Notes: a model not told the origin generated them from the sequence alone. 64,000 bases of DNA from Thermomicrobiales bacterium (GCA_037045155.1 JBAOIG010000003.1:1340111-1404110), one strand, 5' to 3'. Positions 10,791 to 57,491 are shown, numbered from the stretch's first letter. Numbers and translations: made by a program.

Positions 10791-10791
10791 G

Positions 10792-38029: not shown

Positions 38030-38455
38030 CTCGTTTTCCGTCAACCTGACCCTGCGTCTCGTCCGGTTCGGCACGATCCATGCTCAGCGCCGCCGATTCG
38101 GTGCGTATCGGGGTGGCCGGCCGCCGATTTGGATGATCGGCAGATCGGCCAATTCAGGCCAGCCATAGACCCGTCTGGAATCGGTGGCGTACAATCGGTG
38201 GGGAGATGGCGGAGCGCCGTTGCGCAGCCGACATCCTGGCTGGGATCGGGGGAGTGACACGCGAAACCAGCCATGTCTGGCGCTATTGTTACGCGATTCA
38301 CAAGGTCGCGAGGCGAGCGCCGCGGAGGTATCGGAAGGCTGGACGGGTTGCCGCGATCATCGCCCAACAAGCAGGGCACAACGGCCAGATCCGCGCCGGC
38401 CAATGCGGACACGACAACAGGAACCAACCGGGCGAACCGGGTGAAAGGACGTGGC

Positions 38456-39472: not shown

Positions 39473-39529
39473 CGCGGCCGGCCGTCGCTGGCTTCGACCT
39501 TTGAGCGATCGAAACGGAGTAGGAACACC

Positions 39530-40576: not shown

Positions 40577-40603
40577 CCTCACCGCTGCCCAGAGGGCTCC
40601 CTG

Positions 40604-40630
40604 CCCCCTCTCCTCGCGAGGAGAGGGGGG
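40604..40630. repeat. GC-rich hairpin CCCCCTCTCCtcgcgaGGAGAGGGGG just after the pdhB stop
   Basis: 10-bp perfect stem. It belongs to the same family as the hairpins at 17038, 42048 and 49373. There is no U-tract. Confidence 0.6.
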
Positions 40631-40688
40631 AGATTGAATTGATAGATTGACGGACCCCGCAGACGGGGAATGGGGAGAGGCAAGCAAG

Positions 40689-42026
40689 ATGGCGAAGACG
40701 GTCGTCATGCCCCAGATGGGCTACGACATGGATGCCGGGACGCTGCTGCGCTGGCTGAAGAACGTCGGCGACCCGGTCGCGCGCGGCGAGGCGATCGCCG
40801 AAATCGAGACCGACAAGGTCAATATCGAGATCGAGGCGTTCGAGGGCGGCGTGCTGCGCAAGACGCTCATCACCGAGGGGCAGACCGTCCCGGTCGGCGA
40901 GCCAATCGCGATCATCGGCGGGGCCGACGAGGTGATCCCGGAGGTCGAGACCGCCGCGCAGGCCGCGCCGCCGGCTGCCGCCGCGCCAACCCCTGCGCCT
41001 GCGCCGGCCCCTGTAGTTGAAGCCGCGCCCGTCGCTGCGGCAGCGCCAGCTATCGCCGAGCCGGTCGCGCAAGCGCCCCAGGTCGTGAGCCACGAGCCGG
41101 GAGAGCGCATCCGCGCGTCACCCCTGGTTCGTCGCCTCGCCGCCGAGCACGCAATCGACCTCTCCCAGGTTCGTGGCACTGGTCCGCAGGGCCGCATCGT
41201 CAAGCGCGACGTCGACCCGTACCTGACCGGCGCGAAGCCGATGCCGCAGGCCGCTCCGACGCAAGCCCCCGTCGCCCCGGCCCCCGCGCCGGCGCCCGTC
41301 GCAGCTGCGGCTGCCGAGCCGATTCCGACCGTCGGCGGCGAGCTGAAGGATCTGCCGCGCATTCGCCAGACGATCGGCAAGCGGATGAGCCAGTCCTTCC
41401 AGGAAGCGCCGCACTTCTACGTCACGATGGCGATCGGCATGGACAAGGCGCTGCAGCTGCGCAAGCAGGTCAACGGCGATCTCGACGAAGCCAGCCAGGT
41501 GTCGGTCAACGATCTCATCGTCAAGGCTGCCGCGCTGGCGCTGCGCGACTTCCCGGTGCTGAACTCCGCCTGGAACAACGGCCAGATGGAGCTGCACGAC
41601 CACATCGATGTCGGGATCGCGATCGCCATCGAGGGCGGGCTGATCTCGCCGTTCGTCCCCAGCGCCGACGAGAAGTCGCTCGGCGCAATCGCCCGGCTGA
41701 CCAAGGATCTGGCCAGGCGGGCCCGCGAGGGTGGCCTGAAGCCGGAGGAGTACCACGGCGGGACGTTCACGACCTCGAACCTCGGTATGTTCGGGGTGGA
41801 GGAGTTCATCGCGATCATCAACCCGCCGCAGGCCGCCATCCTCGCCATCGGCGCGGCGAAGGCCCAGCCGGTCTGGAACGCGGACAAGGGCAAGTTCAAG
41901 CCCGAGACGATCATGAAGGTCACAATGTCCGCCGACCACCGCCTCACCGACGGCGCCGAAGTCGCGCGCTACCTGCAGAAGCTCAAGGCCCTGCTGGAAG
42001 CGCCGATGACGCTGCTGGTGGGGTAG
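40689..42026 (+). CDS. pdhC: dihydrolipoamide acyltransferase E2
   Basis: Lipoyl domain (EIETDKVNIEIEA), an Ala/Pro linker, a PSBD (ASPLVRRLAAEHAIDL), and a catalytic domain ending in the DHRLTDGA motif. Confidence 0.9.
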   Translation: MAKTVVMPQMGYDMDAGTLLRWLKNVGDPVARGEAIAEIETDKVNIEIEAFEGGVLRKTLITEGQTVPVGEPIAIIGGADEVIPEVETAAQAAPPAAAAPTPAPAPAPVVEAAPVAAAAPAIAEPVAQAPQVVSHEPGERIRASPLVRRLAAEHAIDLSQVRGTGPQGRIVKRDVDPYLTGAKPMPQAAPTQAPVAPAPAPAPVAAAAAEPIPTVGGELKDLPRIRQTIGKRMSQSFQEAPHFYVTMAIGMDKALQLRKQVNGDLDEASQVSVNDLIVKAAALALRDFPVLNSAWNNGQMELHDHIDVGIAIAIEGGLISPFVPSADEKSLGAIARLTKDLARRAREGGLKPEEYHGGTFTTSNLGMFGVEEFIAIINPPQAAILAIGAAKAQPVWNADKGKFKPETIMKVTMSADHRLTDGAEVARYLQKLKALLEAPMTLLVG

Positions 42027-42181: not shown

Positions 42182-44173
42182 GTGGGGGGTGGCGTGAGCA
42201 ACGGGAACCTGAGCTGGGTCACGAACTTCATCTGGGGGATCGCCGACGACGTCCTGCGCGACGTCTACGTGCGCGGCAAGTACCGCGACGTGATCCTGCC
42301 GATGGTGGTGATCCGGCGGCTCGACGCGGTGCTGGAGCCGACCAAGCCGGCCGTGCTGGAGATGAAGAAGTCACTCGACGCGGCCGGGTTCGTCAACCAG
42401 GATTCCGCCCTTCGCACGGCAGCCGGCCAGGCGTTCTACAACACGTCGCCGTTCCTGCTGCGCGACCTCCGTTCCCGCGCTCGCATCCAGCAACTGCGCG
42501 CCGACTTCGAGGCATACCTGGATGGCTTCTCGCCGAACGTCCAGGAGATCCTCGACAAGTTCAAGTTCCGCAACCAGATTCAGACGCTGATTGACGCCGA
42601 GGTGTTGGGCGCGCTGATCGAGAAGTTCCTCGACCACTCGATCAACGTCGCGCCGACACCGGTCTTCGCCAGCGACGGCACGGTCCGGCTGCCGGGGCTG
42701 GACAACCACGCGATGGGCACCATCTTCGAGGAGCTGATCCGGCGCTTCAACGAGGAAAACAACGAGGAGGCCGGCGAGCACTTCACCCCGCGCGATGTCG
42801 TCCGGCTGATGGCCGACCTCATCTTCCTGCCGGTTGCCGAGCAGATCGAGTCCGGCACCTACCTCGTCTACGACGGAGCGTGCGGGACCGGCGGGATGCT
42901 GACCGTCGCCGAGGAGCGGCTGGCCGAGCTGGCCGATGAGCACGACAAGGAAGTCTCGATCCACCTGTTCGGGCAGGAGATCAACCCGGAGACGTTCGCG
43001 ATCTCGAAGGCCGACCTGCTGATCAAGGGCGAGGGGGAGGAGGCCGAGAACTTCCGCTTCGGCTCGACCCTCTCGCAGGACGGCTTCCCGTCACACGAGT
43101 TCGACTTCATGCTCTCCAACCCGCCCTATGGCAAGAGCTGGAAGACCGATCTGGAGAAGATGGGCGGCAAGAGCGGCCTCAACGACCCGCGCTTCGTCGT
43201 CCACCACGCTGGCGACCCGGAGCACAGCCTCGTCACCCGCACGAGCGACGGCCAGATGATGTTCCTGGCCAACATGCTGTCGAAGATGAAGCACAACACG
43301 CCGCTCGGCAGCCGCATCGCCGAGGTGCACAACGGCTCGGCGCTCTTCACCGGCGACGCCGGACAGGGCGAGAGCAACATCCGCCGCTGGATCATCGAGA
43401 ACGACTGGCTGGAGGCGATCGTCGCGCTGCCGCTGAACATCTTCTATAACACCGGCATCGCCACCTACATCTGGGTGCTGAGCAACCGCAAGCCGGCCCA
43501 CCGGCGCGGCAAGGCGCAGCTGATCGACGCGACCGGCTGGCGCCAGCCACTGCGCAAGAACCTGGGCAAGAAGAACTGCGAGCTCTCCGCCGACGACATC
43601 CGGCGTATCGTCGATCGCTACCTGGCGTTCGAGGAAGACGAGCAGTCGAAGATCTTCCCGAACGAGGCGTTCGGCTACTGGAAGGTGACGGTCGAACGCC
43701 CGCTGCGGCTGCGCGGCATCGACCCCGGCCGCGCCTACAGCGCCAAGGAGATCCGCGAGCTGAAGGAGACGGCCGAGCGGGCCGAGGACGCGCCGCCGGT
43801 CATCCGCAAGGTGCTGGCGCGCGGGAACGCCGCCCGATCCGCTCCACGGTCGCTTCGAGGCCGTCATCAACGGCCGGCCGGCGATCGTCGAGTACGAGCC
43901 GGACAGCGACCTGCGCGACACCGAGCAGGTGCCGCTGCTGGAGGAGGGCGGCATCGACGCCTTCATCGCGCGCGAGGTCCTGCCGTTCGCGCCCGACGCC
44001 TGGGTCGTGCCGGACGCGACGAAGGTGGGCTACGAGATCTCGTTCACGCGCTACTTCTACAAGCCCCAGCCGCTGCGGACGCTGGCCGAGATCCGCGCCG
44101 ACATCGAGGCGCTGGAGCGCGAGACGGACGGGCTTGCTCGACCAGGTGCTGGTGACAGTCGGAGACGGGCGAT
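42182..44173 (+). pseudogene. hsdM: type I R-M methyltransferase HsdM, with two +1 frame shifts in the C-terminal quarter
   Basis: N-terminal HsdM domain (IWGIADDVLRD), motif I YDGACGTGGML, and motif IV LSNPPYG. The frame changes near 43815-43825 (continuing TPPDPLHGRFEAVINGRPAIVEYEPDSDLRDTEQVPLLEEGGIDAFIAREVLP...). A likely second change is near 44135 (ETDGLLDQVLVTVGDGR-stop). The pseudogene status could be an assembly artefact. Confidence 0.8.
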
Positions 44174-45663
44174 GAGCCTGGAGCTGCGATCCGTATCCTG
44201 AGTACGATGCGCGATGACGAGCCATGGCCGCGATCGCGCACGCTCACCGGCGCACTCGAGAAGCTGACAGTTCGTGATCGAGCAGTTTGCTCGGCGGGAC
44301 CGACGACCGAATTGCACGCAACCGGATACTGAGACGGTGATATCGCTGTCGGTACGACAGCCTCGAGCTGTTAGCCGACCTCAACGCGCTTCACGATCAA
44401 GCGCAATCAGCCTGTCGATCGAGCGGCTGGCATCGTGTACAAGCGTCAGTCGTTCCCGGATGGTAGCGTAGTCTACGAATCGCGAGCGCCAGTTGGCAAG
44501 GTCGCCATAGCGGCGCGCTGGAGCTGGGCTCATTAGCCCAGGCTGTAAAGCGATCGTTCCGCGACCGATCGACGATAGTTGACACGCCTATGCTGACTAT
44601 TCACTGTTGCGGTCCGCGATGCAGGCAGCACTATCGGAGTCGATCTCGAACGGACTCGGCACTGGATCAGCCGAGCTATCAATCGACTCTACTGAGTCGA
44701 GCGCTACCAAACGATTCCTGTGCCCTCCGCCCATCCGAACAGGTGCACCATAGCTGGCTTCCTGACGCACCATGTGACGCCGAATCCACCCGCCTCATCC
44801 GCGCCAAGCGCCGCCAGATCGAGCTGCTGAACGAGCAGAAGCAGGCGATCATCCACCAGGCGGTGACGCGCGGCCTCGACCCGGCACGTGCCGCTCAAGC
44901 CGTCGGGCATCGACTGGCTCGGCGACGTGCCGGCGCATTGGTACACGCATACACCTCGGCAAGATGCGTCGACGTCGAAGCGAATTACCGGTCGCTCATC
45001 TTGTCCCGTACTAACGGAACGCCCGATAGTCCAGTGGGACCGCGTGAACACCGTCGGATCATGCCGATGATGGACATCGAGCCGCGTGAGTACGACCGAT
45101 ATACGACTCCAAGACGGTGATCTGCTCGTGGTGTGAAGGTGGGGAAGTCAGCCGCTCATGCGTTCTGGAATGGGTCGTTGCCCGTCTGTGGCTCTCAGCA
45201 AGGCGTTACATCGCTGTGATGCGCCCAGCAACACACTGCAGCGCGACGTAGGCGCGATCTCCTGTATCACTTGAGTCCGGATGATAGCGATAGCGTGGAG
45301 TGTTCTCTCGGTACGGAAGTGAAAACACCGATCTTGCAGACACCTGACCGATATGAGAAGCTCCGACGGTACCGGATGGTTTGTCCTCCGGTACAAAGAG
45401 CAGATGCGACATCGCTGAGTACCTGGATACCGAAACCGAAACGCATCGACTGATGCAGTCGATCGCCGTATCGAACGAGAGATCGACCTCATCCGCGAGT
45501 ACCGCACGCGGTTGATCGCCGATGTCGTGACTGGCAAGCTGGACGTACGCGGGATTGAACTGTCGGAGGGCGACGCGGCGTGGGACGAGGACGACGAGCT
45601 CGACGAACCCGATGACGGCGACGAGACGCTGGACGACGCGGAGGGCGAAGGGGGGTTCGAATG
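44171..45663 (+). pseudogene. hsdS: type I R-M specificity subunit HsdS, full-length remnant riddled with stops and frameshifts
   Basis: The ATG overlaps the hsdM stop, but the frame is open for only 9 codons. The central conserved region RLIRAKRRQIELLNEQKQAIIHQAVTRGLDP / VPLKPSGIDWLGDVPAHW is split between two frames. The C-terminal conserved region IDLIREYRTRLIADVVTGKLDVRG is intact and ends in ATGA at 45660-45663. TRD-like pieces (PDGSVVYESRAPVGKVAI, DGDLLVV) are interrupted by stops. Confidence 0.7.
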
Positions 45664-45885
45664 AGCGAGCTGGGACGCATCACGGTCGCGCCGGGGCAGG
45701 CCGGCGGGAGGCCCTGCATCCGCGGGACGCGCGTGCGAGTGAAGGATGTCCTGGAGCTGCTGGCGGCCGGGGCGAGCCGTGAGGAGATCATCGAGGACTA
45801 CCCGTACCTGGAGCCGGGCGACATCACGGCCGCGCTCGAATTCGCCGCCCAACAGGCCGACCACCCGGTCCTGCGCGTCGCCTGA
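45661..45885 (+). CDS. DUF433 domain protein (putative antitoxin)
   Basis: GRPCIRGTRVRVKDVLELLAAGASREEIIEDYPYLEPGDITAALEFA is the DUF433 signature. Confidence 0.75.
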   Translation: MSELGRITVAPGQAGGRPCIRGTRVRVKDVLELLAAGASREEIIEDYPYLEPGDITAALEFAAQQADHPVLRVA

Positions 45886-46214
45886 TGCGCTTTCTGGTCG
45901 ACGCGCAGCTCCCGCCGGCCCTGGCGCGGTGGCTGGCGGAACGTGGCCATGACGGCGAGCACGTCGCGGACGTCGGGCTGCTCTTGGCGACCGACCAGGA
46001 GATCTGGGACTACGCGCGCAGCGTCGGAGCGGCCGTGGTGACGAAGGACGAGGATTTCGCCCTCCGTCGGGGGCTGGCGTCGGATGGTCCGGCCGTCGTC
46101 TGGGTCCGGCGCGGCAACACGACGCGACGCGAGCTGCTGGCGTGGTTCGAGCCGCTGTTGCCGGCCATCCTGGCGGCGCTCGCCGACGGAGAAGCACTGA
46201 TCGAGATTGTCTGA
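45885..46214 (+). CDS. DUF5615 (PIN-like/Mut7-C-like) protein (putative toxin)
   Basis: MRFLVDAQLPPALARWL...GH...V and VVTKDEDF match the DUF5615 pattern. Its start overlaps the DUF433 stop (TGATG). Confidence 0.75.
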   Translation: MRFLVDAQLPPALARWLAERGHDGEHVADVGLLLATDQEIWDYARSVGAAVVTKDEDFALRRGLASDGPAVVWVRRGNTTRRELLAWFEPLLPAILAALADGEALIEIV

Positions 46215-46222
46215 GGACGACG

Positions 46223-49216
46223 ATGCCGACCGACACCACCGAGCACGGGCTTGAGGATCTGATTGTCGCGACGATGACTGGCCACCGAACGACCGCGGAA
46301 TCGGGCGGGCTGAACGACGAACGGCCGGCCTACGGCGGCGCGGGTTACATGCTGGGACACTCGGCCGACTACGACCGCGCCCACGCCGTCGACCTGGACA
46401 AGCTGCTGGCGTTCCTGCGCCCGACCCAGCCGGCCGTCTACGACCGGCTCGACCTCGCCGAGGACACGCCGTCGCGCGGGAAGTTTCTGGGGCGGTTGCA
46501 GGGCGAGATCGAGCGGCGCGGGGTTATCGACGTGCTGCGCAAGGGCATCGACGACCGCTCGGCGCACATCGACCTGTTCTACGGAACGCCCTCGCCGGGC
46601 AACGAGTCGGCCGCCGCGCGCTACGCGGCCAACATCTTCAGCGTCACCCGCCAGCTGCGCTACAGCGCCGACGAGACGCAGCTGGCGCTCGACCTCGTCC
46701 TGTTCATCAACGGGCTGCCGGTCGCCACGTTCGAATTGAAGAACAGCCTCACCAAGCAGACCGTCACCGACGCCGTCGAGCAGTACAAGCGCGACCGCGA
46801 CCCGCGCGAGCTGCTGTTTCACCTCGGGCGCTGCCTGGCCCACTTCGCGGTAGACGACAGCCAGGTTCAGTTCACGACCGAGCTGCGCGGCGAAAGCTCG
46901 TGGTTCCTGCCGTTCGACAAGGGCTACGACGACGGCGCCGGCAACCCGCCGAATCCGAGCGGGCTCAAGACCGACTACCTCTGGCGCGAGATCCTCACCC
47001 GCGACGGCCTGACCGACATCATCGAGAACTACGCCCAGATCGTCGCGGAGAAGGACGACCGCTCCCGGCGCAAGTCGCGCAGGCAGATCTTCCCGCGCTA
47101 CCACCAGCTCGACGTCGTGCGGAAGCTGCTGGCCGATGTGTCGGCGCGGGGAGCGGGGCGGCGCTACCTGATCCAGCACTCGGCCGGCAGCGGCAAGAGC
47201 AACTCGATCGCCTGGCTCGTCCATCAGATGGTCGGCCTGCAGCGCGATGGTGGTGAGGTCTTCGACTCCATCATCGTCGTCACCGACCGGCGGGTGCTCG
47301 ACAAGCAGATCCGCGACACGATCAGGCAGTTCGCGCAGGTTGGCAACACCGTCGGCCACGCCGAACAATCCGGCGATCTGCGCCGCTTCATCAGCAGCGG
47401 CAAGAAGATCATCATCACCACGATCCAGAAGTTCCCCTTCATCCTCGACGAGATCGGCGACGAACACAGCGGCCGTCGGTTCGCCATCGTCATCGACGAG
47501 GCGCACTCCAGCCAGGGCGGTCGCACAGCAGCCCAGATGCATCGCGCGCTGGCGGGTGTGACCGCTGAGGATGATGACACCTACGAAGACCAGATCAACC
47601 GCATCATGGAGACGCGCAAGATGCTGCCGAACGCCAGCTATTTCGCGTTCACGGCAACGCCGAAGAACAAGACACTGGAGATCTTTGGCGAGCGCGACAA
47701 CGCCAGCGGTATCGTCAAGCCACGTCCGTTCCACAGCTACACGATGAAGCAGGCCATTCAGGAAGGGTTCATCCTCGACGTCCTCAAGAACTACACGCCC
47801 GTCCAGAGCTACTATCGCCTGATGAAGACGGTCGAGGACGACCCGGAGTACGACGTTCGCAAGGCGAAGAAGAAGTTACGCCGTTACGTCGAATCGCACG
47901 ATCGGGCCATCCGCAGCAAGGCCGAGATCATGGTCGACCACTTCCACGAGCAGGTCATCGACCGACGAAAGATCGGCGGAGCGGCTCGGGCAATGGTCGT
48001 CACCGGCAGCATCGAGCGGGCAATCGACTACTACATGGCGTTCACCGACTACCTTCGCGAGCGTAAGAGCCCATACCGGGCGATCGTCGCCTTCTCAGGT
48101 GAGCCGGAATATCAGGGCGAGAAGGTCACCGAGGCGTCGCTCAACGGGTTCCCGAGTAGCAAGATCGAGGAGCGGATTCGTGAGGATCCGTACCGCTTCC
48201 TGATCTGCGCCGACAAGTTCCAGACCGGCTACGACGAGCCGCTGCTGCACACGATGTACGTCGATAAGCCGCTATCCGGTGTCAAGGCGGTCCAGACCCT
48301 CTCGCGGCTGAACCGCGCGCACCCGCAGAAGCACGACACGTTCGTGCTGGACTTCCAGAACAACGCCGACATGATTCGCGCCTCGTTCGAGCCGTACTAC
48401 CGCACGACGATCCTTAGCGAGGAGACCGACCCGAACAAGCTCCACGACCTCAAGGCCGACCTGGACGGCTATCAGGTCTACGAACAGGGGCAGGTCGACG
48501 CGCTGGTCGAGCGCTACCTCGGCGGCGCAGACCGCGACAAGCTCGACCCGATCCTCGACACCTGCGTGGCGACCTACAATGAGGAACTGGACGAGGACGG
48601 CCAGGTCGACTTCAAGGCCAAGGCCAAGGCGTTCCCACGGACCTACGAGTTCCTGTCGTCGATCCTGCCCTATTCCAACGTCGGCTGGGAGAAGCTGTCG
48701 ATCTTCCTGAACTTTCTGACGCCGAAGCTGCCGGCCCCGAAGGAGGACGACCTCTCAAAGGGCATCCTCGAAGCGATCGACATGGACAGCTACCGCGTCG
48801 AGGTTCGCTCAGCGCTGGCGATTGCGCTGGCCGACGCAGACGGCCCCATTGGGCCAGTGCCGATGTCAGTGGGCGGTTATGTTCCCGAGCCGGAGATTGA
48901 GCCGCTCAGCAGCATCATCAAGACGTTCAACGACCTGTTCGGCAATATCGAATGGCACGACGACGACAAGATTCGCTACCTGATTGCCGAGGAGATCCCG
49001 CGCAAGGTCGCCGCCAATCGAGCGTATCAAAACGCAATAAGAAACTCCGACAAGCAGAACGCAGAGATTGAGCACGAGAAGGCGCTAAAGGGCGTTATCA
49101 CTGACCTGATGTCAGATCATCTCGAACTGTTCAAGCAGTTTCAGGACAATCAGGCGTTCCGCAAGTGGCTCAGGGACACCGTCTTCGCCGCGACGTATAC
49201 CGGGCCGCCATCCTAG
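46223..49216 (+). CDS. hsdR: type I restriction endonuclease HsdR
   Basis: N-terminal PD-(D/E)xK region (LDLVLFINGLPVATFELKN), helicase motif I QHSAGSGKSNS, DEAH box VIDEAHSSQ, and motif VI QTLSRLNR. The 997-aa frame is uninterrupted. Confidence 0.9.
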   Translation: MPTDTTEHGLEDLIVATMTGHRTTAESGGLNDERPAYGGAGYMLGHSADYDRAHAVDLDKLLAFLRPTQPAVYDRLDLAEDTPSRGKFLGRLQGEIERRGVIDVLRKGIDDRSAHIDLFYGTPSPGNESAAARYAANIFSVTRQLRYSADETQLALDLVLFINGLPVATFELKNSLTKQTVTDAVEQYKRDRDPRELLFHLGRCLAHFAVDDSQVQFTTELRGESSWFLPFDKGYDDGAGNPPNPSGLKTDYLWREILTRDGLTDIIENYAQIVAEKDDRSRRKSRRQIFPRYHQLDVVRKLLADVSARGAGRRYLIQHSAGSGKSNSIAWLVHQMVGLQRDGGEVFDSIIVVTDRRVLDKQIRDTIRQFAQVGNTVGHAEQSGDLRRFISSGKKIIITTIQKFPFILDEIGDEHSGRRFAIVIDEAHSSQGGRTAAQMHRALAGVTAEDDDTYEDQINRIMETRKMLPNASYFAFTATPKNKTLEIFGERDNASGIVKPRPFHSYTMKQAIQEGFILDVLKNYTPVQSYYRLMKTVEDDPEYDVRKAKKKLRRYVESHDRAIRSKAEIMVDHFHEQVIDRRKIGGAARAMVVTGSIERAIDYYMAFTDYLRERKSPYRAIVAFSGEPEYQGEKVTEASLNGFPSSKIEERIREDPYRFLICADKFQTGYDEPLLHTMYVDKPLSGVKAVQTLSRLNRAHPQKHDTFVLDFQNNADMIRASFEPYYRTTILSEETDPNKLHDLKADLDGYQVYEQGQVDALVERYLGGADRDKLDPILDTCVATYNEELDEDGQVDFKAKAKAFPRTYEFLSSILPYSNVGWEKLSIFLNFLTPKLPAPKEDDLSKGILEAIDMDSYRVEVRSALAIALADADGPIGPVPMSVGGYVPEPEIEPLSSIIKTFNDLFGNIEWHDDDKIRYLIAEEIPRKVAANRAYQNAIRNSDKQNAEIEHEKALKGVITDLMSDHLELFKQFQDNQAFRKWLRDTVFAATYTGPPS

Positions 49217-49372
49217 AGGCCGACGCCTGCATCGCGACCCGCCGACGGATACGGCTCACCTGAGCTGGCTCGTCGATATCCTGCGGGACAGCGACTGGCC
49301 CCGCGTAGGCCCTCTCCAGGGCGCCGGCCAGGCCAGAGGCGCTGTCCCTACGGGCCGGTTGCTCGCTCGTCT

Positions 49373-49410
49373 CCCCTCTCCCAGGGTTGGGAGAGGGGCG
49401 GGGGGTGAGG
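49373..49410. repeat. GC-rich hairpin repeat between the convergent hsdR and CHAT genes
   Basis: CCCCTCTCCCAgggtTGGGAGAGGGG followed by cggggggtgagggcc. Confidence 0.6.
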
Positions 49411-49424
49411 GCCGTCCCCCCGGC

Positions 49425-51449
49425 TCACTCCATCGTCGCGCCCGGGTCGCCGTACACGAGGAAGGCGAGCCAGGTGGCGTCGCCGAGGGTCTTGGCGGCG
49501 GCGCGGGCGGTGGTGGTGGCTGCGCCGAGGGTGGCGCCGGCCAGCAGGGCGTCGTAGAAGGCGCGAGCGAACGCGGTGGCCGGCTTCTCGTGGACCGACC
49601 AGGAGGCGCCGACGAACGCGCCGGCCCCGGCGGCCCAGAACGCGGCCGGCCAGCCACCCAGCCGCGTCAGGCTGGATCCCTCGCGGCCCGACTGGCAGGC
49701 GTTCAGGAAGACGAGCGGCGACCGCGCGCTCAGGTTCGCGGTCTGCTGGACGGTCAGCGCGTCGATCGCGACCGGCTGGATGCCGTGGCGGACGGTCTGG
49801 CGGTCGCCGATGATCAGCCGGGCGTCGTCGGCCCTGGCCGGGTCGGTCTGGCCGTGGCAGGCGATGTGGAGCACGTCGAACGCGCCGGCCTGGAGCGCCA
49901 GCAGCGCGTCCTTTTCGGTTGCGTCAATCTTTGCCGGGTGGATGCCGCGGCCTGGCAGTGTCGTCGCCAGGTAGCTCACGTCCTCGGAGAGCGTCGCTTG
50001 CGTCTTGTTCGGATATTCGCCGGCGAGATAGGCCCAGGCGGCTTTGCCGATCTTCCGTGGGCGCATCGTGCCGCCGAGGTTGCGCACCAGCCCGTATTCG
50101 CAGAGGTAGCGGTCGTCCACCTCGCCCGTATCCGGGTGGCGCAGGCGGACGAGCTCCCACGGGATCGACGGCTCGCGGGAGTAGACCTTGATGCCGTGGA
50201 TGGCGTCGCGATGCTCCCAGATGGCGCGGACGAAGACAGGGTCGAAGAGCTGGTCGGACATGTCGGTGCTGATCGCCCGTAGCTTGATGTCGAACACCGC
50301 GAAGTCGTCGTACGTCTCCAGCACCTGCGACTCGATGCGCGTGTAGATGCCGTCGACGTAGCCCTGCGCGGCCGTGCCGCCGGAGCCGGCCAGCCGCCCG
50401 AACGGCTTCGACTGGAACGGCGCATGGTCCAGCTTGAGCGCGTCGGACGAGACGGAGTAGGCGAAGACCAGTCCGTCGCCGAAGGGAAACTCGGTGATCA
50501 GGAGCACGAGGTAGTCGGCATCTTGCGGGGCGGGGGGCTGGGCGGTCGTCTGCGCAGCCTGGCGGACGGCGCGCGGTCGTGACGCGGTGATCGTCACCGG
50601 GAAGGAGAGGGCGCCGAGGTCGGACATTCCCTGCTGGAACAGCACGTCGATCGTCGTTGCGCCAGCCACCCGGCCGGAGACGGCGAACGCGCCGAGGCTG
50701 GGGGCGTTGGGAGCCGGCGGCGAAAGCCGGAGCTGGTATGGCCCGTCGATCGACACCTTCGTCGCGTCGACCGAGAGGGTGGCGACGACGTCGGTGGTTG
50801 ACGCAATCGTCACTTCTGGCAATGCGGTCGGCAGCGGGGTGGCGCCCGCGGCAATCTCCAGCCGGATGTCGATGACTGCCTTCTTGCCGACCCCAAGCTT
50901 CCTCGGCGCGTCACCGGAGAGGATGACATCGAGCGATTCGGACGGGTCTGGAGCGGGGGTGGGGAGCGTGGCCGGCAGCTCGTCATCGATGCCCATCGCC
51001 GGGCCGAGGTCGGGCGCGATGGCGGCAGCCTCGGCAATATACGCCTCGAAACGCCCGGCGACCTGACCTTCCCAGCCGACCATCTCGCCGATCGCCGTGA
51101 CCCGCCGGGCCGAGCGAAGCTGGATGATCCGCAGCGCCGATGGCTGGCGCGCCTCGGTGGGCGGGATGATGGTGGACTCCGGCTGCCCGGGTGGCGCTTC
51201 GATGCTGCGGTCGTCTTCATGCAGATCGAGCGCGATCGTCGCTGGCTGCGGGCCAGACCCGACCACCCGCCAGCGGAAGGCCGCAAGCTCGCGAGGGCGA
51301 AAGGCATAGAGCGCGCCTGCTTCCGGCCGGCGCAGGATTACCCAGTCTGGTGGATGCTCGGCAGCCTCAAGCTCGTCGACGATCTCATCGAGCGTCTGGC
51401 TGGCTTCGAAGAAGCGGAACGTCGCGCCGACGTGCCACTCGATCCGCAT
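49425..51449 (-). CDS. CHAT-domain (caspase-like) protease with ~330-aa uncharacterised N-terminal region
   Basis: C-terminal half carries the CHAT catalytic dyad contexts DVLHIACHG (His) and LVFLNACQSG (Cys). The N-terminal 1-130 and the beta-rich 190-320 segments were not recognised. Confidence 0.8.
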   Translation of the reverse strand: MRIEWHVGATFRFFEASQTLDEIVDELEAAEHPPDWVILRRPEAGALYAFRPRELAAFRWRVVGSGPQPATIALDLHEDDRSIEAPPGQPESTIIPPTEARQPSALRIIQLRSARRVTAIGEMVGWEGQVAGRFEAYIAEAAAIAPDLGPAMGIDDELPATLPTPAPDPSESLDVILSGDAPRKLGVGKKAVIDIRLEIAAGATPLPTALPEVTIASTTDVVATLSVDATKVSIDGPYQLRLSPPAPNAPSLGAFAVSGRVAGATTIDVLFQQGMSDLGALSFPVTITASRPRAVRQAAQTTAQPPAPQDADYLVLLITEFPFGDGLVFAYSVSSDALKLDHAPFQSKPFGRLAGSGGTAAQGYVDGIYTRIESQVLETYDDFAVFDIKLRAISTDMSDQLFDPVFVRAIWEHRDAIHGIKVYSREPSIPWELVRLRHPDTGEVDDRYLCEYGLVRNLGGTMRPRKIGKAAWAYLAGEYPNKTQATLSEDVSYLATTLPGRGIHPAKIDATEKDALLALQAGAFDVLHIACHGQTDPARADDARLIIGDRQTVRHGIQPVAIDALTVQQTANLSARSPLVFLNACQSGREGSSLTRLGGWPAAFWAAGAGAFVGASWSVHEKPATAFARAFYDALLAGATLGAATTTARAAAKTLGDATWLAFLVYGDPGATME

Positions 51450-51468
51450 CTCACGCTCCTTCGCTTGC

Positions 51469-52887
51469 TCAGGCCGGCGGGGTCAGTGTCGTGAAGATGT
51501 CCGCAACCTGCTCTACTGCCGTCCCGCCGCTGACGGTGACGCGGTAGACATCCGGTGGCAGCGGATCGAAGGTTGCCTCCTGCCAGGTGTCGCCGGCCGG
51601 CGCGAGCGTCTTGCGAACGACCACAGCGCCGGTGGTCGTGCTGGAGATGGTTGCATCGATGGCAGTGCCATCGACGCTTGGCCGAACGCGGACGGGGATC
51701 GTGTCGTCGGTCCAGTAGATATCGTCGAGATCGAGCGAGAGGGTGATATTGACGACGGCGGGGGCGAGGTATTCGCCGAGCGGATCGTAGAGGCCGAAGA
51801 TGGCGCCCTTGAGGTGCGTCAGGCCGGCGTCGGCGTTCTGCAATGAGGCGTGCCGGTCGGCAGCGTACATCCCGCGGGCAGACCCCTCCAGCTCGATTGG
51901 CGTCGCCGAGGCGCGCGGCACGGTGCCATCGCCGAGATCGTCGTGGACGCTGCCATCGGCGTAGGTGTATTCGCGCAGCAGCTCCACCCGGCCATCCGTC
52001 AGCCGGCCGGACTGGTTCGTCGGCTGCTCGATGCCGACGATCGGGAAGATCTTGTAGCCGCGCTGGCGGTATTCGTCGTCCTGCTGGTTGCGCGTCACCG
52101 CGTCGCGGATTTCGTGGTGGAAGGCGAGCGCAGCGGCGGCGCGGCCGGGGTCGACGTTCGGGATGCCGGTGGTCTCGCCGATCCGCACCCACGGGCTGCC
52201 CGGGCCGGCCGCATAGCAGCGGTAGGTCGGCAGCAGCTGGTATGTTGAGGTGAAGGAGCGCACCGTCTCGGACAGGTCGAGTAGTTGTCGCGGGCCTTTG
52301 TAGCAGCCGTTGGCCAGCGTGTCGAGCGAGTTGACCGAGCCGCGGTAGGGCGTGCCGAAGGTCAGCAGCGCCCGCGTGTCGCGCCAGCCCTCCATGCATT
52401 CGAGGTAGTAGCGCGCGACGAGCCCGCCCATCGAGTGGCCGACGATGATCAGCTTTGCGTCGGGGTTGTTGGTGTCCTGCCTCCATCGACGCAGGAGGCC
52501 TTCGCCCAGCTCGGTCTGCAGCCGCTTCGCCGCCAGTCGGTTGTCGAGCCGCCAGTCGTAGGGGAATTCGACGAAGTTGACGCCGGGGCTGACCTCGAAA
52601 ACCGCCTGGATCGTGTCACTGGCCTTGCGGTAACCGTCGATCTTCCACAGGCCGGGGATGATGTGGACATCGGGCATCAGCCGCTTCGGGGTGATGCCAT
52701 CCTGTGGGTCCAGGCCATCGCTGCCGGCCGGCAGGCGCAGCTCCTGGAGGCTGTCGCCCCGGCTGAAGAGCGCAGACAGCACCGCGCCGGTCGAGACGTC
52801 CCAGACGTCCTTGCCGCCCTTCCGCAGCGCGCTGCCCATGATCCCGGGGATGAGGACGATGACATCAGGCATCGGTATGCGAGACAT
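51469..52887 (-). CDS. LCAT/PGAP1-like alpha/beta-hydrolase (putative phospholipase/acyltransferase) with beta-rich C-terminal domain
   Basis: VIVLIPGIMGS, FPYDWR (an LCAT-family hallmark), nucleophile elbow GHSMGG, GDGTVP (acid residue), and a late His (ADRHASL). The last ~110 aa look like an Ig-like beta domain. It lies 19 nt upstream of the CHAT gene. Confidence 0.7.
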   Translation of the reverse strand: MSRIPMPDVIVLIPGIMGSALRKGGKDVWDVSTGAVLSALFSRGDSLQELRLPAGSDGLDPQDGITPKRLMPDVHIIPGLWKIDGYRKASDTIQAVFEVSPGVNFVEFPYDWRLDNRLAAKRLQTELGEGLLRRWRQDTNNPDAKLIIVGHSMGGLVARYYLECMEGWRDTRALLTFGTPYRGSVNSLDTLANGCYKGPRQLLDLSETVRSFTSTYQLLPTYRCYAAGPGSPWVRIGETTGIPNVDPGRAAAALAFHHEIRDAVTRNQQDDEYRQRGYKIFPIVGIEQPTNQSGRLTDGRVELLREYTYADGSVHDDLGDGTVPRASATPIELEGSARGMYAADRHASLQNADAGLTHLKGAIFGLYDPLGEYLAPAVVNITLSLDLDDIYWTDDTIPVRVRPSVDGTAIDATISSTTTGAVVVRKTLAPAGDTWQEATFDPLPPDVYRVTVSGGTAVEQVADIFTTLTPPA

Positions 52888-53002
52888 GGTTGCCTCCTGA
52901 TGCGTGGTGCGAAGACGTATAGCTTCATCATAGGGAGAGTCAGGTCGATGTCAATGATTTCTCACACGCGCCACTTTGCGCAGCCGAACAGGCAGACGCG
53001 CG

Positions 53003-53524
53003 TTACTCCGGGTGATCCAGCTCGTACAGCGCCACCTGGTTGCCGTGGTAGATCGTCTGTCCTGCGTTTCGCATGCCGGCCTTCTCCAGCACGCGGCACG
53101 AGGCGGCGTTCGCCGGGATAGTCACCGCGACGATGCGATCCAGCCCGAGGGCGCCGAACCCGTGCCGCAGCAGTCCGATGGTCAGCTCGGTCGCGTACCC
53201 CCGGCCCCAGACGGACCGCGCGAAGTAGTAGCCGACCTGGACCGGGTTGTCGTCGCCGATCGCCGCGTGGTCGAGCACCGCGCCGCCGACTGTCTGCCCC
53301 GTCTCTGTCTCGATCGCCGCCCAGAAGCCCAGCCCGCTGGATGGATCGTGGCGGGCGATACGCGCGTCCAGCCAGGCGCGGGCTTCGTCGCGGGTGGCGC
53401 AGGACATGTGGTCGGGCAGGTAGCGTGTGACGTCGGGGTCGCGGTTCATCGCGTAGACGGCGTCGAGGTCGCCGGCCTGCCATGGGCGGACGACGAGGCG
53501 GTCGGTGCGGAAGATCTCGGTCAC
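53003..53524 (-). CDS. GNAT-family N-acetyltransferase
   Basis: LVVRPW...D........D..V..YL and WGRGYATELTIGLLRHGF..LGLDRIVAVT...N..S.RVLEK.GM are RimJ-like blocks. Confidence 0.8.
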   Translation of the reverse strand: MTEIFRTDRLVVRPWQAGDLDAVYAMNRDPDVTRYLPDHMSCATRDEARAWLDARIARHDPSSGLGFWAAIETETGQTVGGAVLDHAAIGDDNPVQVGYYFARSVWGRGYATELTIGLLRHGFGALGLDRIVAVTIPANAASCRVLEKAGMRNAGQTIYHGNQVALYELDHPE

Positions 53525-53613
53525 GGCGGCGCCCCTTCAACGAGCGACAGTGGAGATGGCAACCACCGTTATACTGGCTTGGCGCGGTATTGGACAGCGG
53601 TGAGGAGGAGAGT

Positions 53614-54510
53614 ATGAAGATCGGGATCATGCTGCTCTCGGGCGGGTCGCCGGCCGAGATCGGGGCGCAGGTCGCCGACGCCGAGCGGCGCGGATTCTCC
53701 AGCGCCTGGCTGGCGAATATCCGCGGGGTGGATGCGCTGACTGCGCTGGCGGTGGCCGGCGCGCAGACGGAGCGGATCGAGCTCGGCACGTTTATCGTCC
53801 CGACCTTTCCACGCCATCCGACGGCAATGGCGCAGCAGGCGCTGACCGTTCAGGCGGCGACGGGCAACCGGCTGGCGCTCGGCATCGGCCTCAGCCATCG
53901 GGTGTCGATGGAGCAGGGGCTAGGCTTCGACTGGAGCCACCCGATCCGGCACACCCGCGAGTACCTGGCGACGCTCATCCCGTTGCTGGCGCAGGAGCTG
54001 GTGAGCTTCGAGGGCGAGGAGTACACCGTCCGCGGCTTCCAGCTGGCAATCCCCGGCGCGACGCCGCCGCCGGTGCTGGTCGCCGCGCTTGGCCCGCAGA
54101 TGTTGCGTCTGACCGGCGCGATGGCCGACGGCACGGCGATCTGGCTGGGCGGGGCGCGGTACATCGCCGAGACGGCGACGCCGACGATCCGCGAGGCTGC
54201 CGCGCGGGCTGGCCGGCCGGAACCGCGCGTCGTCGCCGGACTGCCGATCTGTGTCACCGACAACGCCGGGAAAGTTCGCGACAAGATGGCCCAGGCGTTC
54301 TCGCGCTATGGCGAGCTGCCGTCGTATCGCGCGATCCTCGACCGCGAGGGCGCCGCGGGGCCGGCCGACGTCGCGATCGTTGGCGACGAGGCGGAGGTCC
54401 GCGCCGGGCTGGCTGACCTTGCCGCGGCCGGCGTCACCGACTTCGCCGCCTCCCTCTTCGTCCCCCGTGGCGAGGACATCGAACGCACGATGGCGGCGTT
54501 GCTGGGGTGA
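53614..54510 (+). CDS. LLM-class F420/flavin-dependent oxidoreductase
   Basis: AERRGFSSAWL and LALGIGLSH blocks. GGAGGAG RBS. Confidence 0.8.
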   Translation: MKIGIMLLSGGSPAEIGAQVADAERRGFSSAWLANIRGVDALTALAVAGAQTERIELGTFIVPTFPRHPTAMAQQALTVQAATGNRLALGIGLSHRVSMEQGLGFDWSHPIRHTREYLATLIPLLAQELVSFEGEEYTVRGFQLAIPGATPPPVLVAALGPQMLRLTGAMADGTAIWLGGARYIAETATPTIREAAARAGRPEPRVVAGLPICVTDNAGKVRDKMAQAFSRYGELPSYRAILDREGAAGPADVAIVGDEAEVRAGLADLAAAGVTDFAASLFVPRGEDIERTMAALLG

Positions 54511-54579: not shown

Positions 54580-55335
54580 GGCAGACCGGCAGCCACCCGG
54601 CATGGTTTGTCATCCTGAGGCGCGCACGCCGAAGGATCTCTCCTGCGTTCGGACGTGTATCGAGCGTGGTGGGAGATGCTTCGCTGAGGCTCAGCATGAC
54701 AAAGGGTGGGGTCGGCAGCCACCCGGCATGCCTTGTCATCCTGAGGCCGCAGCCGAAGGATCTCTCCTGCGTTCGGACTGTGATCTGGCGTGGAGGGAGA
54801 TGCTTCGCTGAGGCTCAGCATGACAAAGGGCGGGGTCGGCTGCCACCCGGCTGGCTTGTCATCCTGAGGCGCGCACGCCGAAGGATCTCTCCTGCGTTCG
54901 AACGTGGCATCCGGCGTGGGGGAGATGCTTCGCTGAGGCTCAGCATGACAAAGGGCGGGGTCGGCTGCCACCCGGCTGGTTTGTCATCCTGAGCGCGCAC
55001 GCGAAGGATCTCTCCTGCGTTCGAGTGGCATCCAGCGTAGGGAGATGCTTCGCTGAGGCTCAGCATGACAAAGGGCGGGGTCGGCAGCCACCCGGCTGGT
55101 TTGTCATCCTGAGGCCGCAGCCGAAGGATCTCTCCTGCGTTCGAACGTGACTGGCGTGGAGGAGATGCTTCGCTGAGGCTCAGCATGACAAAGGGCGGAC
55201 CGGCAGCCACCCCGTATGGCTTGTCATCCTGAGCGCGCACGCGAAGGATCTCTCCTGCGTTGGACTGTCACATGCCTGTGGGAGATCCTTCACTGCCGGG
55301 CGCCCTCTGGGCGGAGGAAGACAGGACAAAAGGCA
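54580..55335. repeat. array C: six ~120-125-bp hairpin (REP/MITE-like) units with conserved arms and variable loops
   Basis: Each unit reads GGCAGCCACCCGGC.GG.TTGTCATCCTGAG...GAAGGATCTCTCCTGCGTTCG, then 16-20 variable nt, then GGGAGATGCTTCGCTGAGGCTCAGCATGACAAAGGGCGGGGTC. The last unit has a degenerate 3' arm. Confidence 0.9.
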
Positions 55336-55431: not shown

Positions 55432-55530
55432 GGACGGCGTTTGACGAAGATGTCTCAATCATCGTACCATCGCCACAAACACGAGCAACATTTACGCGAT
55501 CCAGCGATCCAGCGGAGGGCATCAGCGGCG

Positions 55531-57491
55531 ATGAACGTCGAGACGATCCTGTCCCAAATTGAGCTTGGGGCAATGGCACTGCCCGAGTTTCAACGCGGCT
55601 ACGTCTGGAACAGAGATCAGGTGCGCGGGCTGATGGACTCGCTCTACCGGCAACACCCGGTCGGCGGTCTGCTTGTCTGGGTAACGAAGACGGAGCACGC
55701 GTCTGCCCGCGGTGATGGTCCGCTCTCGGCCGGCACCGTCGAGCTCCTGCTCGATGGCCAACAGCGGATTACGTCCCTCTACGGGATCATCCGCGGTAAT
55801 CCACCCCGCTTCTTCGAGGGCAACAAGCAGGCGTTCACCGATCTGTACTTCAACCTCGACGACCAGACGTTCGAGTTCTACGGCCCGGTCAAGATGCGCG
55901 ACAATCCGGCCTGGATCAGTGTCACGCAGGTGATGCAGGAGGGTGCCGGCCCGACGATCCGTCGCCTTGCCCGGCTGCCAGATCTCGCCGACGATGTCGC
56001 GGATCTGTACTTCGAGCGCGTGAATCGAATCGACAACATCAAGCAGATCGACCTCCACATCGAGAAGGTCATCGGTGATGACAAGACGATCGACGTGGTG
56101 GTCGATATCTTCAACAAGGTCAACAGTGGCGGGACGAAGCTCTCGAAGGGCGACCTTGCGCTCGCCAAGATCTGCGCCGAGTGGCCCGAGGCGCGAAACG
56201 AGATGCGGACGAGACTGGACAAGTGGGAAGCGGCTGGCTTCTCCTTCCGGCTGGAGTGGCTGCTGCGGTGCGTCAATGCGATCGTCACCGGCGAGGCGAT
56301 GTTCACGGCGCTGGCGAACGTCGGGCCCGCCGAGGTGAATCAGGGCCTGCGACAAGCCGAAGGCGCGATCGACGCGCTGCTGAACCTCGTGTCATCGCGA
56401 CTGGGTATCGACCACGACCGTGTGCTCGGCAGCCGCTACTCGTTCCCGCTGCTGGCACGCTACCTCACCCAGCGGGGTGGCCGGCTGAGCGACTACCGCG
56501 AGCGCGACAAGCTGCTCTACTGGTACGTCCACACGTTCCTCTGGGGTCGCTACGCCGGGTCGACCGAGACTGCTCTGAATCAGGATCTCGCGTTGGTCGA
56601 GAATCTGGATGGCGGGCTGGATCGGCTGATCGAGCACTGCGCCGAAACCGTGGCGACCTGACGATTCACCCGAACGACTTCCTCGGCTGGAGTCGCGGCG
56701 CCAGGTTCTACCCGCTGCTGTATATGCTGACCCGCGTCTACCATGCGCGAGACTGGGAGACCGGCTTCGAGCTGTCCAACAATCTGCTTGGCCGGCTGAG
56801 CTCGCTGCAGATGCACCACATCTTCCCGAAGGCGCTGCTCTACAAGCACGGCTACGAGTTGGCGGAGGTCAACGCGCTGGCGAACTTCACCTTCCTGACG
56901 CAGGAGACGAACCTGCTTGTCTCGGACAAAGACCCGGCCGAGTACCTCCTGCGCTACGAGCAGCTACATCCCGGCGCTATCGCCTCGCACTGGATTCCGA
57001 CGGATCCACGACTCTGGCGGGTCGAGAACTATCGCGAATTCCTGGCCGTCCGTCGGGAGCTTCTGGCGAACGCTGCCAATACGTTTCTCGACAGTCTGCT
57101 CTCGGGGGCGGCTGCTGATACTGCGTCCGTGCCATCGGTGCTCGACCACGGGCCGCTGTCGATCGCGGCGAACGTTCCGCTCGAAGACGAGGAACAACTG
57201 ATCCTCGACACCGCGGAGTGGGTGACGCAGCAGGGCCTGCCGATGGGCGAGATGCTCTACGAGTTGGCGAATCCCGAGACGGGGGAACCGCTCGCTATCT
57301 TCGATCTCGCCTGGCCCCTTGGGTTGCAGGAGGGTCTGAGCCAGCCAGTTGCACTGCTGCTGAACGAGGCTGAGACGATGGAGCGGCTAGCCAACGACGC
57401 CGGCTTTCGCTACTTCACGTCGGCCGGCGCGTTCCGTGTCTACGTCCAGCGCGAGATCCTCGCCGAGGCGTTGGAGGACGTCGCCGACTGA
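55531..57491 (+). pseudogene. GmrSD-like type IV restriction-type protein (DUF262 + DUF1524 His-Me finger), split by one frame shift near 56635-56645
   Basis: DUF262 blocks LPEFQRGYVW and LLLDGQQRITSLYGI lie in ORF 55441..56661. The DUF1524-like QMHHIFPKALL...N.L.NFTFL lies in ORF 56181..57491. Joining them reads ..LDRLIEH/ALRRNRGDLTIHPNDF... The pseudogene status could be an assembly artefact. Confidence 0.75.

Follow-up and report, generated by a model that had tools for sequence, protein, structure and literature searches.

What do an LCAT-like lipase and a CHAT protease accomplish together when their genes lie 19 nucleotides (nt) apart on the same strand? The question is raised by positions 49425-52887, minus strand, of a 64,000-nt stretch of DNA from a Thermomicrobiales bacterium (GCA_037045155.1 JBAOIG010000003.1:1340111-1404110), the whole of which is referred to here as the window. 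The original prediction took the two genes for a candidate undescribed defence or abortive-infection module. Comparison across genomes shows that the lipase and the protease are a co-conserved functional pair, as judged from synteny, translational coupling and gene fusions, and that the lipase family is dedicated to partnership with proteases. From analogy and the comparative data, the pair is best read as a protease-licensed membrane-lipid effector for abortive infection, to which we assign a probability of about 0.55.

The conservation of the pairing was analyzed in a census with one genome per GTDB species, in which at least 565 genomes contained a relative of the lipase and the best 80 loci were examined. 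In 52 of these loci, an open reading frame (ORF) encoding a caspase-superfamily protein (CHAT, Peptidase_C14 or an unnamed caspase-like family) was located within 1.5 kb of the lipase gene. Six more were recognized through truncated genes, cluster membership or fusion, so that at least 58 of the 80 loci, from more than eight phyla, pair or fuse the lipase with a caspase-superfamily gene. The protease partners were window-type CHAT proteins, TPR- or Sel1-CHAT proteins, Peptidase_C14 proteins and the unnamed caspase-like family, whose members have 469 amino acids (aa) and SHGG and ACYSGG motifs. The rest included about seven loci on contigs too short to judge, six in which the lipase adjoins a NACHT/STAND gene and one with a trypsin-like protease; some lipase relatives adjoin unrelated genes, such as those for an OPT transporter, an aromatic-amino-acid lyase or an amylase.

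The gene order was retained as well. In the closest relative (L001), the CHAT gene follows the lipase gene after a 17-nt gap, and the two products are 72% and 83% identical to those of the window, respectively. A window-type CHAT gene follows the lipase gene in further relatives with identities of 54/37, 52/38 and 49/36% (lipase/CHAT), and the same order was found in L005, L006, L008 and ten GTDB genomes (lipase, 42-54%; CHAT, 23-43%). Intergenic gaps in relatives ranged from -17 to +27 nt, and 4-nt overlaps were frequent. The lipase was more conserved than its protease in every pair compared while the protease types varied, a pattern that fits a shared effector served by fast-diversifying activators or sensors. 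An exhaustive hidden Markov model (HMM) search (E ≤ 1e-30) yielded 1,145 clusters of the lipase family at 50% identity.

LCAT and CHAT domains also occurred in one uninterrupted ORF, both in Archangium minus Cbm 6 (L022, NZ_CP043494, 10001-13081, 1026 aa) and in a metagenome-assembled genome (MAG) of Actinomycetota (L053, 10001-12934, 977 aa). Among the top 150 lipase-family representatives, approximately 16 (about 1 in 10) were long proteins, and seven of the nine long ones tested were LCAT+CHAT fusions (P0175, P0179, P0181, P0184, P0185, P0205 and P0211). The fusions span 977-1197 aa, keep the immunoglobulin (Ig)-like tail of the lipase and have CHAT at the C-terminus. A related hydrolase of the DUF7379 family is fused to TCAD7-DUF7363-CHAT in P0012 (L004:10001-13024). 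The co-conservation of the two genes as neighbours, which the original prediction had proposed to check, is thus borne out by the paired loci, the recurrent fusions and the order kept in relatives.

In four Armatimonadota-type loci (L010-L012 and L014), the operon consists of the lipase (53-56% identical to that of the window), a bacterial gasdermin (PF26164) with an N-terminal Cys3, and then a caspase-like protease of 469 aa, which has the SHGG and ACYSGG motifs and belongs to no Pfam family. The triad spans L010:6001-9686, and its lipase gene is located at 10001-11395 in both L011 and L012. Gasdermin was present in these 4 of the 80 loci and is absent from the window pair. In L040, a member of the triad-type caspase-like family comes directly after the lipase, and in L034 the family is found fused to other domains. 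In the literature searched, we found no description of a lipase as the third component of a gasdermin operon. These triads place the lipase family in known cell-death circuitry.

On Streptomyces and Rhizobium plasmids, the lipase adjoins STAND "ATP-binding" and WD40 proteins, near integrase, insertion sequence (IS) or RES genes. The NACHT/STAND partners (the downstream genes of L060, L063, L080, L082, L085 and L084, and L095:7422-9377) share an N-terminal domain of about 250 aa with invariant Cys96, His122 and Glu171 (GTCLDLA...GHA...ECTGFA). This domain gave Transglut_core matches in two of four sequences (E=0.02) and no sequence match in the PDB. Because the Transglut_core matches were below threshold, its designation as a papain-like protease is tentative.

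In the window, both ORFs of the pair are intact and have the arrangement described in the original prediction. The features of the unit, all on the minus strand, are as follows.

52927..52954, minus strand: candidate sigma-70-like promoter (TTGACA-16 nt-TATGAT), with 11/12 consensus positions, in the 115 nt that separate the lipase gene from the GNAT gene upstream
52893..52898, minus strand: Shine-Dalgarno sequence AGGAGG, with a 5-nt spacer to the lipase ATG, read from the sequence
51469..52887, minus strand: gene 1, LCAT/LPLA2-like alpha/beta-hydrolase with a C-terminal Ig-like domain, 472 aa
51793..52887, minus strand: catalytic alpha/beta-hydrolase domain, residues 1-365, from the triad (invariant in 85 sequences) and the secondary structure in the AlphaFold2 (AF2) model
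52432-52434, 51928-51930 and 51850-51852, minus strand: codons of the putative triad residues Ser152, Asp320 and His346, respectively
51742..51792, minus strand: inter-domain linker, residues 366-382 (...GLYDPLGEYLAPAVVN...), a candidate protease recognition/cleavage segment, from low AF2 confidence and motif co-variation
51472..51741, minus strand: C-terminal Ig-like beta-sandwich, residues 383-472, a candidate autoinhibitory, docking or membrane-binding domain, from AF2 and Foldseek
51456..51461, minus strand: Shine-Dalgarno sequence AAGGAG within the 19-nt gap, with a 6-nt spacer to the protease ATG
49425..51449, minus strand: gene 2, multidomain CHAT (caspase-superfamily) protease, 674 aa
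51075..51449, minus strand: N-terminal alpha/beta domain, residues 1-125, TCAD7-like, a candidate sensor/adaptor, from the homologue alignment
50586..50936, minus strand: DUF7363 Ig-like beta-sandwich, residues 172-288, from a weak Pfam match and AF2
49428..50192, minus strand: CHAT protease domain, residues 420-674, from Pfam, conservation, AF2 and Foldseek
49854-49856 and 49695-49697, minus strand: codons of the catalytic dyad residues His532 and Cys585, respectively
49373..49398: perfect 10-bp GC-rich hairpin (CCCCTCTCCC-aaccct-GGGAGAGGGG), 27 nt past the protease stop codon, between the convergent hsdR and protease genes

The promoter match was the single sigma-70-like match across 49100-53700, where shuffled sequences gave an expectation of 0.4; being a match to the consensus, it is a candidate promoter. 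The hairpin has no U-tract and was not called by the terminator scan. As the original prediction had noted, the pair converges on hsdR (46142..49216, plus strand); the GNAT gene is located upstream at 53003..53524. Because it has its own promoter match, Shine-Dalgarno sites and 3′ hairpin, the pair looks like an autonomous bicistronic operon, separate from GNAT transcription.

The lipase matched the Pfam families LCAT (PF02450, E=4.2e-13, 49.7 bits against a gathering cutoff of 21) and PGAP1 (7.6e-8), and more weakly a palmitoyl-protein-thioesterase family (E=0.0019). The nearest solved structures for the family profile in the PDB were PLA2G15 (1e-7) and LCAT (1e-3). Ser152, Asp320 and His346 were invariant across an alignment of 85 sequences, and the conserved motifs were Y110-D111-W112-R113, H151-S152-M153-G154-G155 and G319-D320-x-T322-V323-P324, plus H346. 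The FPYDWR, GHSMGG and GDGTVP segments singled out in the original prediction therefore correspond to the invariant residues. Profile and triad context together assign the protein to the LCAT/LPLA2-like enzymes, with a predicted phospholipase or acyltransferase function. Because the family is clearly related to LCAT and lysosomal PLA2, membrane phospholipids are a testable hypothesis for its substrate. Since the N-terminus leads directly into the first beta-strand, with no evident signal peptide, the lipase is probably cytosolic. A lipase 84% identical to that of the window was found in a Thermomicrobiales MAG.

The AF2 model of the lipase had a mean predicted local distance difference test score (pLDDT) of 90.7 and a predicted template modelling score (pTM) of 0.81, with an alpha/beta-hydrolase domain extending from residue 1 to about 365 and an Ig-like sandwich at residues 383-468. 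The beta-rich tail that had been noticed from the sequence is thus a confidently modelled Ig-like beta-sandwich. The poorest-confidence block, residues 371-380 (pLDDT 56), was in the inter-domain linker. In Foldseek searches, the whole lipase matched the two-domain lipases BlEst2 (propeptide form, 6wpx), Legionella PlaB (6zti) and the A. fulgidus lipase, in which the C-terminal beta-domain is a propeptide or regulatory domain. The tail alone matched CARDB/SoxY/FN3/complement-MG-like sandwiches. Homology between this tail and the DUF7363 domain of the protease, which would have suggested homotypic docking, gave no hhalign signal (probability <1%).

The protease matched the Pfam family CHAT (PF12770, E=9.7e-22, 78.2 bits against a cutoff of 24) over residues 481-652, and Peptidase_C25 (3.2e-7). 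The His/Cys dyad reported in the original prediction was confirmed, in that H532 (HIACHG) and C585 (NACQSG) were invariant among 11 family members. Close homologues of the window-type protease were few (12 matches). The approximately 330 residues in front of the CHAT domain, which the original prediction could not assign, were resolved into four parts by the AF2 model (pLDDT 76) and homologue alignment. These are an alpha/beta domain (residues 1-125), an Ig-like sandwich (172-288) preceded by a disordered linker (135-169), and a beta/helical region (314-411), after which comes the CHAT fold (420-674). The DUF7363 match was weak in the window protease (E=0.008) and strong in its homologue P0012 (4e-23). 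TCAD7 was below significance in the window protease; it was detected in P0012 (1.6e-10) and in the L006 partner (6e-6), both of which align over the window N-terminal domain. Foldseek matched the protease to the CHAT domains of DdvA, Csx29/Craspase, separase and SAVED-CHAT (E=5e-10 to 1e-7). PADLOC matched it to Borvo (BovA) and SAVED-CHAT at domain level alone (4e-5 and 7e-5, residues 509-655). Neither PADLOC nor NCBIfam assigned either protein of the pair to a named system. The window pair contains no cyclase or SAVED domain as in CBASS, and gave no full-length match to Borvo or SAVED-CHAT.

The catalytic core of the lipase was strongly conserved; variability, and correlation with partner class, were highest in the last helix, the inter-domain linker and the Ig-like tail. 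A per-column scan for mutual information between the lipase sequence and the class of its partner mostly followed general variability and was suggestive at most. Within the linker (window residues 362-384), an aromatic/Leu-[RK] motif was present in 42 of the 48 lipases whose partner is a CHAT or C14 protease and in none of the nine whose partner is the gasdermin-type protease (Fisher p = 5.6e-7, uncorrected for phylogeny). The latter lipases carry FF, AF or IY at this position. All six NACHT-partnered lipases have [IV]RGP in the linker, which recalls the R|G cleavage sites reported for LcHydrolase, a caspase-activated hydrolase from Lysobacter capsici that is described below. Because the linker and tail are variable and the motif differs by partner class, we propose the linker as a candidate cleavage segment, where a cut would free the Ig-like domain.

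These data suggest the following mechanism. The LCAT/LPLA2-like enzyme would be made as a latent cytosolic (phospho)lipase, and the N-terminal TCAD7-like and DUF7363 Ig-like domains of the CHAT protein would either hold its protease inactive or serve to switch it on. Upon a stress or infection cue, the protease would cut the lipase, most likely in the flexible linker between the catalytic and the C-terminal Ig-like domains, so that the Ig-like domain is released. The freed lipase would then degrade membrane lipids, and the cell would be killed or arrested (abortive infection). Both proteins keep intact catalytic residues. We infer that the protease acts on the lipase; the place of the cut, the lipid substrate, the trigger and a role against phage are likewise inferred. 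A protease-licensed lipase is favoured because of the co-conservation, the fusions, the linker co-variation, the gasdermin triads, the precedent of LcCaspase and LcHydrolase, and the propeptide-type lipases among the structural relatives. The suicide effector guessed at in the original prediction is therefore the mechanism with the best support, by analogy with gasdermin systems and with the biochemically tested module of Evans et al. (bioRxiv Nov 2025, PMC12642450). Island statistics do not back its anti-phage side, which draws chiefly on analogy and on the kinds of partner found (gasdermin, NACHT and TPR).

Several observations weigh against this mechanism. NCBIfam and PADLOC scans of the lipase matched no model. 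Since an effector for the protease is already present in the gasdermin triads, the lipase might serve another purpose there. The sequences behind the linker comparison are not phylogenetically independent. The linker of the window lipase reads GEY-L-APA, a Leu standing in for the Arg of its nearest relatives; because Leu rather than Arg or Lys is at the proposed P1 position, the cleavage site is uncertain in this protein.

The genomic setting also gives less than had been claimed for it. The genes around the pair are those for hsdM, hsdR, a DUF433/DUF5615 pair, a GmrSD_N protein, a ResIII helicase, the GNAT protein and a luciferase-like oxidoreductase. In the defence neighbourhood of the original prediction, hsdR, hsdM, the embedded toxin-antitoxin (TA)-like pair and a GmrSD_N gene were indeed found nearby, but several of its members are damaged or otherwise identified. 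hsdM (42182-44201) is frameshifted near 43,820, and its canonical C-terminus (…EYEPDSDLRDTEQVPLLEEGGIDAFIAREVLPF…) continues in another frame (ORF 43929-44201), which indicates either a pseudogene or an assembly indel. hsdS (44590-45120) is an apparent fragment (…RLIRAKRRQIELLNEQKQAIIHQAVTRGLDP…) with no Pfam hit, and the type I restriction-modification (R-M) system beside the pair may be non-functional. The GmrSD-like gene (55441-57491) occupies two frames, split near 56,620-56,640; a 653-aa GmrSD orthologue of L001 matches frame 1 of the window with its residues 1-370 and frame 3 with its residues 361-653. The 'type III-like' protein (35105-38029) is a ResIII helicase with a weak C-terminal match to a TnsA-like endonuclease, and the ORF upstream of it (33885-35108) had no Pfam match. 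The BCKDH E1a/E1b/E2 housekeeping genes (38273-42026) separate this helicase from the type I R-M genes and thus interrupt the 'island'. Between the hsdS remnant and hsdR, at 45661-46214, genes for DUF433 (74 aa) and DUF5615/PIN_10 (109 aa) share one base (45885) and form a toxin-antitoxin-like pair, as the original prediction had noted.

In L001, the nearest relative, a DUF6508 gene occupies the place of the type I R-M genes, so that these are a lineage-specific insertion beside a resident lipase-CHAT pair. When 108 neighbouring ORFs from 40 loci of the family were searched with PADLOC, only a handful matched (two caspases, one type III R-M pair, AbiEii and type II methyltransferases). Because so few matched, no family-wide enrichment is claimed: defence-island enrichment across the lipase family is weak, and the island argument has less force than the original prediction gave it. 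No lipase homologue was found in the phage collection.

One competing explanation reverses the roles of the two proteins. The protease could itself be the executioner, cutting host or phage proteins as do the caspase-like proteases of type IV Thoeris, with the lipase not being activated by cleavage. The lipase could instead serve as a co-effector, as a membrane anchor or adaptor by way of its Ig-like domain, or as an upstream sensor that turns the protease on through its lipid product or through binding. A caspase-like protease that defends without a dedicated effector is described by Evans et al. 2025 (PMC12642450), and the CHAT proteases Csx29 and SAVED-CHAT cut non-enzyme targets; in addition, the protease of the gasdermin triads already has a substrate and the linker motif of the window lipase is missing its basic residue. 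However, the catalytic triad is invariant across the approximately 1,145 lipase clusters, which indicates that catalysis matters. Of the components, the lipase is conserved best and the proteases diversify, the opposite of what would be expected of a sensor. The fusions and the co-variation of linker and protease class also fit a substrate relation better, and we regard an executioner protease as possible though unlikely. It is rather unlikely that the pair is a device for regulated cell death or stress unrelated to phage, acting in development, kin conflict or membrane/proteotoxic stress in filamentous or aggregating bacteria. Kaur et al. 2020 (PMC7159879) link such systems to multicellular prokaryotes, and the hosts here include many actinomycetes, myxobacteria and cyanobacteria. 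Matches to anti-phage families are scarce among the flanking genes, and sister modules have stress-linked, DnaK-fused variants (Evans et al. 2025, PMC12642450). On the other hand, sister protease-effector modules and gasdermin systems protect against phage, the neighbours of the window pair and of several relatives include R-M, GmrSD, McrBC, integrase or IS elements, and the NACHT/STAND and TPR partner architectures are typical of antiviral NLR-like proteins.

Because LCAT-family enzymes are transacylases, a protein substrate was also considered: the lipase would be an acyltransferase or thioesterase acting, for example, on the palmitoyl group of gasdermin, on the protease or on the protease targets. 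The weak palmitoyl-protein-thioesterase match, the position of the lipase directly 5′ of a gasdermin with a conserved N-terminal Cys3 in L010-L012 and L014, and the stabilization of inactive gasdermin by palmitoylation (Johnson et al.) are consistent with this explanation. Nevertheless, most loci, the window included, have no gasdermin, and gasdermin palmitoylation has been credited to autocatalysis (Johnson et al.), so that we consider this role very improbable. Certain family members are found beside the OPT transporter, aromatic-amino-acid lyase and amylase genes mentioned above, as would be expected if a housekeeping enzyme of lipid metabolism adjoined an unrelated protease by chance, but the paired loci across phyla, the 4-nt overlaps and the repeated fusions effectively refute chance adjacency.

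A broader form of the protease-licensed lipase may be considered, which we put forward as speculation and judge to be improbable. The lipase with its Ig-like tail would be a universal, protease-gated, lipid-directed death effector served by at least four protease types (CHAT, C14, gasdermin-linked caspase-like and STAND-fused cysteine proteases). It would be activated by removal of a single C-terminal domain, unlike the double internal cut of LcHydrolase. Where a gasdermin is in the operon, the lipase and the pore former would work together, the lipase either remodelling membrane lipids or acting on the gasdermin palmitoyl-cysteine. If true, this would be a bacterial two-effector pathway joining lipid hydrolysis and pyroptosis.

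As for novelty, the concept of alpha/beta-hydrolase-caspase pairing is already known, and the lipase family described here differs from the LcHydrolase that has been tested. The claim that no named system has this pairing holds insofar as PADLOC v2 has no model for it; the pair can no longer be called undescribed, since the pairing itself was reported by Kaur et al. 2020 (PMC7159879) and by Evans et al. 2025 (PMC12642450). In the former, a purely computational study (eLife; Kaur, Burroughs, Iyer and Aravind), caspase-superfamily domains of conflict systems are described as always having a neighbouring alpha/beta-hydrolase gene, the hydrolase and the caspase are proposed to 'operate together', and a related hydrolase is placed in GAP1 GTPase systems as well. 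Such hydrolases have been viewed as membrane-lipid effectors (Kaur et al. 2021). The window resembles the 2020 systems in its caspase-superfamily gene with an adjacent alpha/beta-hydrolase and in the presence of TCAD7 ('ternary complex associated domain 7') on homologues of its protease. None of their MoxR-vWA-VMAP core genes flank the window pair or the pairs of L001, L005, L006 and L008, and no STAND gene is located near the window pair.

The alpha/beta-hydrolase is among the most abundant protease-associated effectors in the survey of Evans et al. (PMC12642450). In Lysobacter capsici AZ78, LcCaspase cleaves LcHydrolase, a protein of about 295 aa, at the conserved sites R73|G and R117|G into fragments of 8.1, 4.7 and 19.8 kDa, and together, the fragment from the N-terminus and that from the C-terminus kill E. 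coli. As in the window, the hydrolase gene is co-inherited beside that of a caspase-superfamily protease, the sensor domains on the proteases are varied, and the hydrolase is lipase-like and proposed to be a zymogen that site-specific proteolysis licenses to cause cell death. LcHydrolase, however, is a single-domain protein cut inside the hydrolase fold, whereas the window lipase has two domains in 472 aa and its candidate cut lies in the inter-domain linker. Compared with the published description of LcHydrolase, the R|G sites are absent in the window lipase, where residue 73 is Asp and residue 117 is an Arg followed by Leu/Val/Ala; the single conserved R-G of the window lipase family, R182-G183, is in the structural GTPYRGS motif.

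Similarities to other systems were more partial. In gasdermin systems (Johnson et al. 2022), a CHAT/C14 protease is likewise encoded beside a latent membrane-damaging effector, which is freed by loss of a C-terminal inhibitory segment; the window has no gasdermin gene, and its putative effector is an enzyme rather than a pore former. Caspase-nuclease pairs follow the same protease-gated logic (Tuck et al., Science 2025, PMC12799240). The canu and trypsin-MBL nuclease pairs of that study share with the window a pro-enzyme gated by a partner protease and Ig-like domains in the caspase proteins, but their effector is a DNase of the metallo-beta-lactamase (MBL) fold, not a lipase. The window lipase shares the YDWR, GHSxG, GxPxxGS and GDGTV motifs with eukaryotic LCAT and PLA2G15. 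The match covers about 120 core residues, and the bacterial enzyme has no signal peptide, a different cap region and an added Ig-like domain. Systems with DUF7379 have the TCAD7-DUF7363-CHAT protease architecture (P0012 and L091) and a hydrolase of the same broad LCAT/PGAP1-like clade. Their family is distinct from the window lipase, since the likeness (hhalign probability 94%, E=9e-8, 167 columns) does not extend beyond the region around the nucleophile elbow, the extensions at the N-terminus are different (DUF7362) and the family is much rarer (34 hits, proteins of 420-520 aa). When the approximately 300-aa DUF7379 hydrolase of P0012 was used as the query, no Lysobacter entry of about 295 aa was among the 420-520-aa proteins returned.

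In bacterial immunity, death effectors that are licensed by a protease are coming to be recognized as a main principle, parallel to the caspase-gasdermin and caspase-CAD pathways of animals. If the proposed mechanism is confirmed, the lipase family would add a membrane-lipid-degrading arm to bacterial caspase-type immunity. With about 1,100 clusters at 50% identity, found in at least 565 species genomes, the family is large; it is also highly conserved and confidently modelled. Natural fusions of lipase and CHAT, the triads with gasdermin and the linker motifs specific to each partner class offer starting points for locating the cleavage site and identifying the trigger.

Some further arrangements were observed in the same loci. 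In L021, L026, L039 and L043, a conserved protein of about 810 aa with no Pfam match precedes the lipase, an OPT transporter gene is located downstream and no protease was detectable; the protein could be an unrecognised partner class. The rarer DUF7379 hydrolases, often with an N-terminal DUF7362, are fused or adjacent to DUF7363-CHAT proteins. One (L091:7001-10396) is located beside McrBC genes, and that of L004 is near a TPR-CHAT gene and a patatin gene encoding 1156 aa. In the window, a 120-bp tandem repeat at 54587-55261 (5.5 copies, 89% matches) lies between the luciferase-like and GmrSD genes and yields spurious repeated ORFs on both strands.

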